Shown here: positions 57,819-59,487 of the stretch, piece after piece
How positions within the stretch are numbered: position 1 is the stretch's first letter
Layout of the letters: each line of letters starts with the position of its first letter
Sequence record: OQ378934.1
Direction: 5' to 3' (one strand)
Length of the DNA stretch: 64,000 nucleotides
Origin: Escherichia phage LH2
The notes under the pieces: generated by a model
The model's database searches: none
Seen by the model: only the letters and a program-made list of their open reading frames with translations
What the model was told of the DNA's origin: nothing
Position numbers and translations under genes: made by a program

Positions 57819-57891
57819 TGGGAATTAGCCAAGTTGGTAAGGCATAGCACTTTGACTGCTAGATGCAAAGGTTCGAGTCCTTTATTCCCAG
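57819..57891 (+). tRNA. tRNA-Gln (anticodon UUG)
   Basis: Cloverleaf folded by hand: acceptor TGGGAAT/ATTCCCA, anticodon loop CTTTGAC, T-arm AAAGG-TTCGAGT-CCTTT. Confidence 0.85.
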
Positions 57892-57892
57892 C

Positions 57893-57979
57893 GCGAGAAT
57901 GGTCAAATTGGTAAAGGCACAGCACTTAAAATGCTGCGGAATGATTTCCTTGTGGGTTCGAGTCCCACTTCTCGTACCA
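57893..57979 (+). tRNA. tRNA-Leu (anticodon UAA), type II, CCA encoded
   Basis: Acceptor GCGAGAA/TTCTCGT, anticodon loop CTTAAAA, long variable arm, T-arm GGGTTCGAGTCCC. Confidence 0.85.
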
Positions 57980-57985
57980 AAGTTT

Positions 57986-58056
57986 GCGGATATCGTATAA
58001 TGGCATTACCTCAGACTTCCAATCTGATGATGTGAGTTCGATTCTCATTATCCGCT
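57986..58056 (+). tRNA. tRNA-Gly (anticodon UCC)
   Basis: Acceptor GCGGATA/TATCCGC, anticodon loop CTTCCAA. Confidence 0.8.
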
Positions 58057-58069
58057 CAAATTTAATTTA

Positions 58070-58143
58070 CTCCGTGTAGCTCAGTTTGGTAGAGCGTCTG
58101 CTTTGGGAGCAGAATGTCGTAGGTTCAAATCCTGCCACGGAGA
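58070..58143 (+). tRNA. tRNA-Pro (anticodon UGG)
   Basis: Acceptor CTCCGTG/CACGGAG, anticodon loop TTTGGGA, T-loop TTCAAAT. Confidence 0.85.
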
Positions 58144-58145
58144 CT

Positions 58146-58232
58146 GGAGGCGTGGCAGAGTGGTTTAATGCACCGGTCTTGAAAACCGGCAGTCGCTCCG
58201 GCGACTCATAGGTTCAAATCCTATCGCCTCCG
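58146..58232 (+). tRNA. tRNA-Ser (anticodon UGA), type II
   Basis: Acceptor GGAGGCG/CGCCTCC, anticodon loop CTTGAAA, long variable arm. Confidence 0.85.
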
Positions 58233-58239
58233 TAATTTC

Positions 58240-58312
58240 GCTGATTTAGCTCAGTAGGTAGAGCACCTCACTTGTAATGAGGATGTCGGCGGTTCGATTC
58301 CGTCAATCAGCA
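58240..58312 (+). tRNA. tRNA-Thr (anticodon UGU)
   Basis: Acceptor GCTGATT/AATCAGC, anticodon loop CTTGTAA. Confidence 0.85.
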
Positions 58313-58318
58313 TATCAA

Positions 58319-58390
58319 GGCCCTGTAGCTGGAAGGTTCAAGCAAGCGACTCATAATCGCCAGATGGTGGTTCAATTCCACCCAGGGCCA
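58319..58390 (+). tRNA. tRNA-Ile (anticodon CAU, presumably lysidine-modified)
   Basis: Acceptor GGCCCTG/CAGGGCC, anticodon loop CTCATAA; T4 carries an Ile tRNA of this type. Confidence 0.75.
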
Positions 58391-58431
58391 TATTTTGGGA
58401 ACATAAATATTCTTAGAAATAGGAGATATTT

Positions 58432-59097
58432 ATGTTCCATTACATTTATAAAATAACAAATAAAATTAATAATAAAATCTATATAGGCGCTCATTCTACC
58501 GAAAATTTAGATGATGGATATATGGGTTCTGGTAAATTATTAAAAAGAGCCCAAGACAAGTATGGTATAGAAAATTTTTCTAAAGAAATATTAGAGTATT
58601 TTGATGATAAAGAATCTATGCTTGAGTCAGAAAAGAATATTGTGACTGAAGAGTTTTTAAAGCGCCCTGATGTTTATAATTTGAAATTAGGTGGTGAAGG
58701 TGGTTGGGACCATTTAAACACTAAAGAATATTTGGATAAAAAGAAAGAAGCTTCCTTAAAAGGGGCTGCTGCTTTTAAAACCAGATTTGAGAACGACCCA
58801 GACCTTAAAGAAAAATATCGTAAAATGGGTTCAGAAAGGTTTAAACAGCTTTGGGATAATCCTAAGTATAGAGAGAAATTTTTAAATATTAAATCTTTCT
58901 TGGGTAAGACCCATACTCCTGAAACTATTAATAAAATGAAAGAATCTCACGCCAGAAATAAACACCAACAGGGCGAAAAGAATTCCCAATTTGGTATGAT
59001 GTGGATTCATTCATTAGATGAAAAAGTTTCTAAACGTATTAAGAAAACTGACCCAATTCCAGAAGGATGGTTTAAAGGTCGAAAAATGAAATTTTAA
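58432..59097 (+). CDS. segB: GIY-YIG homing endonuclease inside the tRNA cluster (SegB-like)
   Basis: 221 aa; YIYKITNKINNKIYIGAHS ... DDGYMGSG ... NLKLGGEGG; sits between tRNA-Ile and tRNA-Arg as segB does in T4. Confidence 0.8.
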   Translation: MFHYIYKITNKINNKIYIGAHSTENLDDGYMGSGKLLKRAQDKYGIENFSKEILEYFDDKESMLESEKNIVTEEFLKRPDVYNLKLGGEGGWDHLNTKEYLDKKKEASLKGAAAFKTRFENDPDLKEKYRKMGSERFKQLWDNPKYREKFLNIKSFLGKTHTPETINKMKESHARNKHQQGEKNSQFGMMWIHSLDEKVSKRIKKTDPIPEGWFKGRKMKF

Positions 59098-59100
59098 TTA

Positions 59101-59177
59101 CGGGGCATAGCTCAATTGTATAGAGCAACGGACTTCTAATCCGTAGGTTGAAGGTTAGAATCCTTCTGCCTCGACCA
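59101..59177 (+). tRNA. tRNA-Arg (anticodon UCU), CCA encoded
   Basis: Acceptor CGGGGCA/TGCCTCG (one G-U), anticodon loop CTTCTAA, T-arm GAAGG-TTAGAAT-CCTTC; starts 3 nt after the segB stop. Confidence 0.8.
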
Positions 59178-59179
59178 AA

Positions 59180-59487
59180 CAAGAAACCGGGTCGCTACCG
59201 GTAAGTCGTCGGACTGATGTTCCCTGGAGTATAGTTTCTCCCACAGTTTTACTGTGTTCTGATTCTTTACTATCACAACAGAAACGGCGCACCGAATTAT
59301 CGATTCGAGGAAATATCTTTGCCGTAAGCCGAGTAGCGTTTTTGACGGAACGTTCGGATATGGTCGAGATATGGCCTTTTAAAAATATTGAGTAGCGTCA
59401 ACTGCTTAATAACCGGGTTCAAATCCCGGCGTTTCGTACAAACACTTGCCTTAGCAGGTGGAACCCCGACAAGATTGCCGCAAGGCT
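59180..59487 (+). ncRNA. stable-RNA region (T4 rnaC/rnaD-like), boundaries not resolved
   Basis: About 300 nt ORF-free and GC-rich, directly after tRNA-Arg, ending at a terminator; contains a tRNA-like T-arm CCGGGTTCAAATCCCGG. Confidence 0.4.

Follow-up and report, generated by a model that had tools for sequence, protein, structure and literature searches.

The T-even tRNA operon of Escherichia phage LH2, with segB and the structured stable RNAs rnaD and rnaC

Organization of the locus

We analysed a 64,000-nucleotide (nt) stretch of the genome of Escherichia phage LH2 (sequence record OQ378934.1; hereafter the window), and in particular a cluster of transfer RNA (tRNA) genes with the sequence that trails it, at positions 57819 to 59487. 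Judged from its sequence, the locus is the tRNA operon of the T-even phages (Tequatrovirus) with segB, rnaD and rnaC, each part of which could be identified. The gene order Gln-Leu-Gly-Pro-Ser-Thr-Ile(CAU)-segB-Arg-rnaD-rnaC-terminator is that annotated in the T4 reference NC_000866 (tRNA-Gln, Leu, Gly, Pro, Ser, Thr, Ile, segB, tRNA-Arg, rnaD, rnaC), where rnaD is species 2 RNA, of 119 nt, and rnaC is species 1 RNA, of 139 nt. By megablast, positions 57700-59600 match 939 phage records, nearly all of them T4-like phages of Escherichia, Shigella, Yersinia or Salmonella, the best at 97% identity over the full length. The T-even tRNA locus has been known since the 1970s; the feature is textbook T4 biology and ordinary as a genome feature. 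The functions of its species 1 and species 2 RNAs have nevertheless been an open, minor question for about 50 years, which comparative structures, the spread of rnaD across phage families and a helix-restoring mutation now make directly testable. The genes of the locus are as follows, with the score against the Rfam tRNA model and the number of positions identical to the T4 gene where these apply.

57819..57892, + strand: tRNA-Gln (UUG), no encoded CCA; called by ARAGORN; Rfam 66 bits; T4 73/74
57893..57979, + strand: tRNA-Leu (UAA), long variable arm, CCA encoded; ARAGORN; Rfam 57 bits; T4 86/87
57986..58057, + strand: tRNA-Gly (UCC); ARAGORN; Rfam 63.3 bits; T4 71/74
58070..58144, + strand: tRNA-Pro (UGG), divergent allele; ARAGORN; Rfam 69.7 bits; 63/75 to T4 and to T2
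58145..58233, + strand: tRNA-Ser (UGA); ARAGORN; Rfam 62.6 bits; T4 87/89
58240..58312, + strand: tRNA-Thr (UGU); ARAGORN; Rfam 75.4 bits; T4 73/76
58319..58390, + strand: CAU tRNA, most likely of the Ile2 type, T2-type allele; ARAGORN; Rfam 59.9 bits
58432..59097, + strand: segB, predicted GIY-YIG homing endonuclease gene, 221 amino acids; PF01541, PHROG, identity to T4 SegB
59101..59177, + strand: tRNA-Arg (UCU), CCA encoded, third allele; ARAGORN; Rfam 71.2 bits; T4 43/77, T2 62/77
59179..59293, + strand: rnaD (species 2 RNA), T2-type variant; alignment with T4 rnaD; T2 97%
59300..59438, + strand: rnaC (species 1 RNA), tRNA-shaped; alignment with T4 rnaC (137/140 identical), fold, covariation

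The tRNA genes

An initial annotation of the window, made from the letters alone, had placed eight tRNAs at these positions, packed with spacers of 1-13 nt, and had called for an automated tRNA search. ARAGORN and the Rfam tRNA model (RF00005, gathering score 29 bits) agree with it: ARAGORN calls exactly eight tRNAs, all of which score 57-75 bits, and with Rfam boundaries the spacers measure 1, 9, 13, 2, 7 and 6 nt. CCA is encoded by the Leu and Arg genes only. Five of the tRNAs (Gln, Leu, Gly, Ser and Thr) are at least 96% identical to those of T4; the remaining three, Pro, CAU and Arg, represent other alleles. In the corresponding region of T2, a Thr gene is lacking. Compared allele by allele, the locus is not a copy of that of T4: around segB it combines T4-like and T2-like sequences with others of a third type, as a mosaic.

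The CAU tRNA is identical at 72/72 positions to a T2 gene annotated as tRNA-Met and at 47/74 to the T4 tRNA-Ile, and ARAGORN labels it Met. Its best matches in E. coli (80.8% over 72 nt, at a median of 2 places per genome) are annotated as tRNA-Ile in 5423 of 5426 complete genomes, and because these closest relatives carry that annotation, the label 'Ile-CAU' given by the initial annotation stands as a reasonable one. The acceptor stem holds the pairs C4-G69 and C5-G68, which we take to be determinants for lysidine synthetase (TilS). Most likely this tRNA is of the Ile2 type, in which C34 would be converted to lysidine and AUA would be read.

All eight anticodons read A-ending codons, where the initial annotation had said that they mostly do. 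Such codons are common in the window: among 60 long open reading frames (ORFs; 18,583 codons), the A-ending codon takes 69% of its family for CAA, 42% for TTA, 36% for GGA, 42% for CCA, 30% for TCA, 32% for ACA, 21% for ATA and 29% for AGA, shares that are far above E. coli usage. This heavy use of A-ending codons supports the idea that the phage tRNAs supplement those of the host.

segB and its recognition motif

The gene that splits the cluster sits between the CAU tRNA and tRNA-Arg. It is preceded by a ribosome-binding site, AGGAG, at 58421-58425, and its TAA stop ends at 59097, leaving 3 nt before the start of tRNA-Arg at 59101, the same distance as had been read from the letters. The identification of the gene as segB-like was also sound: the product has an N-terminal GIY-YIG domain (PF01541, residues 3-71, 28.4 bits against a cutoff of 22.6), matches a PHROG homing endonuclease family at 1e-49 and is identical to T4 SegB at 187 of 221 residues (85%) over its full length and with no gaps, the 34 substitutions being concentrated in residues 95-175. 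From this likeness, the window protein is an orthologue of T4 SegB and a predicted homing endonuclease.

T4 SegB recognises a 27-bp site with the core GGTTCRANTCC, which is the T-arm motif of tRNA genes, and homes into the segB-less cluster of T2L at nearly 100% efficiency; it is also the only SegB for which site-specific cutting of tRNA genes, and homing in mixedly infected cells, have been demonstrated (PMC2330249). The core motif occurs seven times in the window against 0.23 occurrences expected by chance, and all seven lie in this locus: rnaC has one and six tRNAs have the others, tRNA-Gly and tRNA-Arg being the two whose T arms are without it.

The tail of the operon

Beyond tRNA-Arg, the initial annotation had described about 300 nt of ORF-free, GC-rich sequence with a tRNA-like T arm, and had proposed a tRNA-like stable RNA. 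In pairwise alignment, the tail (59178-59487) corresponds to rnaD and rnaC of T4; the two together are 97% T2-like and about 90% T4-like. The T arm, CCGGGTTCAAATCCCGG, is at 59413-59429, within rnaC. The claim of a tRNA-like RNA holds for T4 rnaC, whose acceptor stem and T arm covary, and falls short in that the tail holds two RNAs, rnaD and then rnaC. The G+C content of 46.5% is high only relative to the AT-rich phage genome (36.2% for the whole window). A conserved hairpin and a terminator after rnaC had been missed, as had the non-T4 alleles of Pro, CAU and Arg. The interpretation given in the initial annotation was essentially right.

The tail was indeed free of ORFs of at least 60 amino acids; only ORFs of 41-50 amino acids were found, on either strand. 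These short frames overlap the tail, and 'hypothetical protein' features are drawn there in most deposited genomes, so the tail could be held to encode small proteins, as many GenBank records have it. We regard this as extremely improbable, given the absence of any longer ORF, substitutions that are paired across helices and show no codon periodicity, homologues that differ by insertions or deletions of 1-3 nt, and experiments in T4 that found RNAs and not proteins (PMC3014915, PMC9697503). In most deposited genomes of T4-like phages, one to four coding sequences of this kind cover rnaD and rnaC, and the RNAs are named only in T4-derived records. There is a practical point here, since these 'hypothetical proteins' are spurious annotations and neither RNA is an Rfam family.

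rnaC is a tRNA-shaped RNA conserved across phage genera

The predicted fold of rnaC is a cloverleaf with unusual arms. The acceptor stem pairs 59301-59307 with 59430-59436 over seven positions (CGAUUCG/CGUUUCG), two of which are U.U oppositions. At the position of the D arm there is an irregular long arm of 70 nt (59308-59377), with a 3-bp base, AGG/CCU, and an apical loop, UUGACG, at 59342-59347. It is followed by an A-rich linker of 8 nt (59378-59385) and, at the position of the anticodon arm, by a 10-bp arm (59386-59411) closed by the hexaloop CGUCAA (59396-59401). The T arm starts one nucleotide after this third arm and has the loop UUCRAAU. The 3' tail is UACA in most phages and UCCA in Marfavirus and in phage PM2.

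Homologues were sought by BLAST in rounds, the tail serving as the first query and divergent homologues as the later ones. Besides Tequatrovirus, this iterated search found rnaC in Gaprivervirus, Kagamiyamavirus, Winklervirus, Karamvirus, Kanagawavirus, Moonvirus, Gelderlandvirus, Mosugukvirus, the unclassified Straboviridae phage Ursula, and Marfavirus, with a length of 139-143 nt in all cases. Most homologues directly follow a tRNA (...CCA and then AAUAAU) and often directly precede tRNA-Gly or tRNA-Trp; in VR7, PEi26, Kosakonia 305 and NM4.3, rnaC has no annotated adjacent tRNA.

The cloverleaf obtained by RNAalifold as the consensus of 21 distinct sequences is the same as the minimum free energy (MFE) structure of the window sequence alone (-50.1 kcal/mol, z -4.67). 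Across the alignment, 93.5% of the cells are paired and 23 of 42 pairs are changed on both sides. When the structure was slid along the alignment, 37-48% of the cells were paired and only 2-5 pairs showed double changes; none of 500 shuffles reached the observed values. In PM2, both U.U oppositions of the acceptor stem are U-A pairs, and position 3:70 alternates between A-U, G-C and G.U, being A-U or G-C in 20 of the 21 sequences. A covariance model built from the alignment gives the homologues 109-150 bits and the window sequence 147.6 bits (E 2e-30), and its weak extra matches are ordinary tRNAs only.

These changes bear on whether the tail is made of decayed pseudo-tRNAs and transcribed spacer, functionless and carried along by linkage to the tRNA cluster or by segB homing. 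The acceptor and T arms of rnaC are tRNA-like, with a sub-threshold Rfam tRNA match; phage clusters do hold degenerate tRNA-like pieces, one of them at L030:1419-1500 in phage phiWec190, and a 'tRNA-Pseudo' is annotated in Pet-CM3-4; and the region is dispensable in the laboratory. Decay is nonetheless very unlikely in view of the 23 pairs of rnaC with compensatory changes and a length that is fixed across 12 genera, of an rnaC that is identical to that of T4 at 137 of 140 positions next to a tRNA-Arg identical at only 43 of 77, and of a convergent adaptive mutation, discussed below, that restores an rnaD helix.

Several known classes of RNA were considered for rnaC and rejected. It is not a canonical tRNA: ARAGORN makes no call, the Rfam tRNA model gives 14 bits against 29 (E 4.5, on the T arm), a 6-nt loop closes a 10-bp stem, and a 70-nt arm replaces the D arm. 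As a transfer-messenger RNA (tmRNA), it likewise has no ARAGORN call and no tag ORF, position 3:70 is not G.U except in PM2, and the whole RNA is only 140 nt long. YrlA (RF02553) matches at about 20-24 bits against 69, on real tRNAs only and nowhere in 59170-59530. No Rfam family was found for rnaC or rnaD in scans of 57000-60500 at E<=1 and of 59170-59530 at E<=10; residual matches were chance-level hits to isrK, STnc310 and anti-hemB, and the tRNA match on the T arm.

Outside the BLAST matches, the pattern GGTTCGAGGA...AACCNGGT was found in 117 stretches of viral_contigs; 7 of the 78 newly retrieved loci are real rnaC by the covariance model, all of them from T4-like contigs of about 170 kb. 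The same kind of pattern scan over 185,579 bacterial and archaeal genomes gave 26 loci, none of which was confirmed by the model; these are chance matches in GC-rich metagenome-assembled genomes. A BLAST search with rnaD and rnaC against 5,426 E. coli genomes gave no match. With no E. coli match and no bacterial locus confirmed by the model, there is therefore no sign of a host homologue that the two RNAs could mimic.

The two hexaloops of rnaC, UUGACG and CGUCAA, are exact reverse complements of each other and are invariant while their stems drift. As a pairing they are satisfied in 99.2% of cells, and in Marfavirus they have become UUGGCG/CGCCAA, a compensatory change from A-U to G-C. In the searchable literature, which does not cover the papers of the 1970s, we found no description of the covarying cross-genus cloverleaf of rnaC or of its complementary hexaloops, and no functional study of species 1 RNA (p2Sp1) or of the tRNA-like RNAs of T4-like phages was found there.

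rnaD is a modular structured RNA found in unrelated phages

rnaD lies directly 3' of tRNA-Arg. Compared with T4, the first 45 nt and the last 30 nt hardly vary and the central ~45 nt are replaced. Its 5' hairpin, H1 (59186-59202), is followed by the closing helix P1, in which GUCGUCG (59205-59211) pairs with CGGCG(C)AC (59285-59292), and by a second helix, P2 (UGAUG/UAUCA). The conserved motif GUUCCCUG is at 59219-59226 and the inner hairpin CACAG-UUUUA-CUGUG at 59242-59256. The architecture shared among homologues is H1, AAGU, P1, P2, the UUCCCUG motif, a variable inner hairpin module, CACAGCAGAAA and the 3' strand of P1. P1 (CGUCS/SGGYG) covaries, with G-C exchanged for C-G in 5 of 18 sequences, P2 shows several pair types, and H1 and P1 are present in the MFE structure of 23 of 27 distinct variants. 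The 3' end of rnaD, ...GGCGCACC(A), was considered as a mimic of a tRNA acceptor and rejected, as the same bases form the 3' strand of P1 and covary with CGUCS.

Within Straboviridae, rnaD-like elements are found in Karamvirus and Jiaodavirus (between tRNA-Asn and tRNA-Asp), Kanagawavirus, Moonvirus and Mosugukvirus, and there is another in Marfavirus. They also occur outside the Straboviridae, in the tRNA clusters of large coliphages unrelated to T4: inside a tRNA cluster in the Certrevirus POP17 (L035:577-690), between a tRNA-like piece and tRNA-Thr in the Phapecoctavirus phiWec190 (L030:1499-1613), and, in phage W70 of the Vequintavirinae (L031:1492-1592), directly after a CAU tRNA nearly identical to that of the window. 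The arrangement in W70 suggests horizontal transfer of a module made of the tRNA and rnaD.

Two neighbouring elements were seen along the way. The tRNA-like piece of phiWec190 (L030:1419-1500, ~80 nt) has a 7-bp acceptor-like stem and a T-arm-like hairpin and is not called by ARAGORN; judged by this predicted fold, it could represent either a degenerate tRNA or a further mimic of one. In PM2 (L019:~430-560) and Q7622 (L002:~1330-1420), a second conserved element, GUUGUUCCCACA-hairpin-UGUGUUCUAC...CAAGCUACUU, lies between the rnaD-like RNA and the next tRNA, and shares the motif UCCCACAG...CUGUGUUCU with the centre of the window-type rnaD.

A further clue comes from phage BW-1, in which only one single-nucleotide polymorphism (SNP) was convergent in three lines adapted to host ECOR34 (PMC12685909). 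This SNP (OR125554.1, position 164264) is an A-to-G change on the RNA strand at nt 74 of rnaD, equivalent to window position 59254, and it turns CACAG-UUUUA-CUAUG, with a C.A mismatch, into CACAG-UUUUA-CUGUG, a perfect inner hairpin. The perfect hairpin is already present in the window, with G at 59254, and in T2, phiWec190 and POP17. The repair of the hairpin was not remarked on by the authors of the study. Given where it falls, the change is an argument that the fold of rnaD matters to fitness on some hosts, whether the effect is exerted in cis or in trans.

Transcription signals and flanking DNA

The signals identified around the genes are the following.

57723..57753, + strand: putative MotA-dependent middle promoter, found by eye, ~65 nt upstream of tRNA-Gln
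59443..59460, + strand: conserved hairpin CACUUGC-CUUA-GCAGGUG, from the fold, located after rnaC and before the terminator, within the precursor's 3' trailer
59489..59518, + strand: intrinsic terminator, AGCCCCACCCGAAAGGUUGGGGCU and then UUUUU, from a terminator scan and the fold; the same element is in T4

In T4, the region gives one primary transcript of ~1.75 kb from a middle promoter just upstream, with termination after the species I gene (PMC2330249). In the window, a MotA-box-like sequence, TATGCTTTA, is found at 57723-57731 and a -10-like TATTAT at 57748-57753; TATGCTTTA with TATTAT is a plausible counterpart of the T4 middle promoter. We judged it against what we take to be the consensus of T4 middle promoters. 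Promoter assignments were made by eye only because a sigma-70 scan performed at chance level (9 found, 9.0 expected). The hairpin at 59443-59460 is conserved in T4, T2 and other Tequatrovirus sequences.

In the MFE structure of the whole precursor (59101-59526), the 3' GAAACG of rnaD pairs with the 3' CGUUUC of rnaC, and the 5' strand of rnaC forms a small hairpin instead. According to this folding model, the pairing might be an alternative conformation of the precursor, relevant to the order of processing. As the functional acceptor stem it was rejected: rnaC homologues of other genera follow ordinary tRNAs and retain the stem with U.U oppositions, PM2 has turned U.U into U-A, and W70 has GAAACGG with no rnaC downstream.

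Two copies of the late-promoter consensus TATAAATA lie on the + strand near the operon. One, at 57473-57480, is inside a trna.2-like ORF (57434-57721), ~340 nt upstream of tRNA-Gln, and might be the source of the late expression that has been reported for the RNAs. The other, at 59519-59526, belongs to an insertion of 543 bp relative to T4 that starts directly after the operon terminator (window 59519-60064) and also holds an ORF of 152 amino acids (59566-60024; phrog_2280, function unknown, with no Pfam match) and a near-identical second copy of the terminator (60033-60064, compare 59490-59521), after which the match to T4 resumes. By its sequence, the insertion looks like a cassette gained by recombination at the terminator repeat.

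A model for the operon

Our results suggest the following scheme. By homology with T4, one transcript of ~1.7 kb would start at a promoter that shortly precedes tRNA-Gln and end at the terminator (59489-59518). Host tRNA-processing enzymes would release from this precursor the eight tRNAs, two stable RNAs and the segB message. For the LH2 phage itself, the single precursor, processing by host enzymes, late accumulation and homing by SegB are inferred by analogy. The tRNAs, with U34 or CAU anticodons and the latter probably modified with lysidine, would supplement late translation at A-ending codons. E. coli tRNAs for the A-ending codons favoured by a phage of 36% G+C are scarce. SegB would cut the tRNA genes of segB-less relatives at GGTTCRANTCC and copy itself and its neighbours in; such homing and gene conversion would therefore produce the mosaic of allele types seen in the window. 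rnaC would be a tRNA mimic, excised like a tRNA because it keeps the acceptor stem and the T arm, which RNase P and the enzymes of 3'-end maturation recognise, and unable to decode because it lacks a 7-nt anticodon loop. The ends of rnaD are probably set by the processing of its neighbours, since it sits between tRNA or tRNA-like units. We hold this overall explanation, comprising the identity of the operon, codon supplementation, SegB homing, rnaC as a mimic and rnaD as a structured RNA, with high confidence.

What the two RNAs do is a separate matter. In cells infected with T4, RNAC and RNAD build up as late RNAs (PMC9697503). We tentatively propose that they are trans-acting RNAs with host-dependent effects on fitness, acting most likely by titrating or redirecting a host tRNA-binding factor; this is a real possibility, although we would put it at less than even. 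A related proposal, which we make with the same reserve, is that rnaC and rnaD are two phage-specific families of structured RNAs that together act in trans as determinants of host range or fitness. Of the two, rnaC is conserved in at least 11 Straboviridae genera as well as Marfavirus, and its absence extends to the representative bacterial genomes that were screened. The hexaloops of rnaC would then base-pair, rnaD would be shared horizontally among three unrelated groups of large coliphages, and the target could be, for example, a host tRNA-binding enzyme or a tRNA-directed defence nuclease. A trans-acting role in host range would explain why the sole mutation fixed in BW-1 on a semi-permissive host is the repair of an rnaD helix.

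The main rival view, which is conceivable though we find it doubtful, is that rnaD and rnaC act in cis only, as structured spacers of the precursor that steer or shield its processing, hold off 3' exonucleases or adjust read-through or termination of the operon; the stable RNAs would then be by-products with no function in trans. This would fit the fact that both invariably lie within tRNA operons or at their ends, with tRNAs as neighbours, that rnaD ends where adjacent tRNA-like units start, that a conserved hairpin and a terminator follow rnaC, and that the inner hairpin of the window-type rnaD, with its U-rich tail, is terminator-like and is the one strengthened by the BW-1 SNP. However, VR7, PEi26, Kosakonia 305 and NM4.3 keep rnaC without an annotated tRNA beside it, and both RNAs reach levels detectable in Northern blots late in infection (PMC9697503). 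The hexaloops of rnaC, moreover, are invariant across genera while the stems drift, which points to sequence-specific recognition more than to mere structure.

Our reading of rnaC and rnaD, in fold and processing as well as in a trans-acting role, has several observations to contend with. The terminator scan picked out the inner hairpin of rnaD, with the U-rich run behind it, as terminator-like, and the BW-1 SNP could act through transcription or termination instead of through the RNA itself. The folds of rnaD are little more stable than those of shuffled sequences (z -0.65 to -2.9), and its middle is swapped modularly between phages. In the T4 annotation, rnaC starts one base upstream of the predicted acceptor stem and ends at U73-A74, and these ends are not reconciled with canonical processing by RNase P and CCA addition. 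The pairing of the rnaC hexaloops rests on a single compensatory event, and a kiss in cis between an arm of ~24 bp and one of 10 bp would be sterically awkward, so the contact may instead join two molecules, or proteins may bind the loops. Because of this one event and the very unequal lengths of the arms, loop-loop pairing, in cis or between molecules, is offered here as a hypothesis, and an intramolecular kissing loop was not adopted as settled. Finally, T4 can do without its tRNA region on laboratory hosts (PMC2330249), and reviews state that the roles of rnaC and rnaD are unknown, no experiment having assigned them a function (PMC3014915).

Comparison with known systems

The closest system is the tRNA region of T4 itself (NC_000866, 70908-72530), which has the same eight anticodons in the same order, segB in the same position, the same tail of rnaD, rnaC, hairpin and terminator, and the same flanking trna.2-like ORF. 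The window differs from it in the alleles of tRNA-Pro, the CAU tRNA and tRNA-Arg, in a CAU tRNA and an rnaD of the T2 type, in a SegB of 85% identity, and in the extra 543-bp cassette after the terminator. The two SegB proteins share their length and locus. rnaD has the same H1-P1-P2 architecture in both phages, whereas its centre in the window is the T2-type CACAG/CUGUG module. rnaC has the same position and fold in both, with three substitutions, two of which are in loops or at wobble positions.

More distant parallels are found in the tRNA-like domain of tmRNA and in YrlA, some of them phage-encoded, which, like rnaC, keep the acceptor stem and the T arm and replace the anticodon arm. Unlike them, rnaC lacks a tag ORF and a Ro-binding stem and, PM2 apart, has no G3.U70, and neither the tmRNA nor the YrlA family of Rfam matches 59170-59530 even at E<=10. 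The likeness of rnaC to tmRNA and YrlA is thus one of principle only, and not of family.

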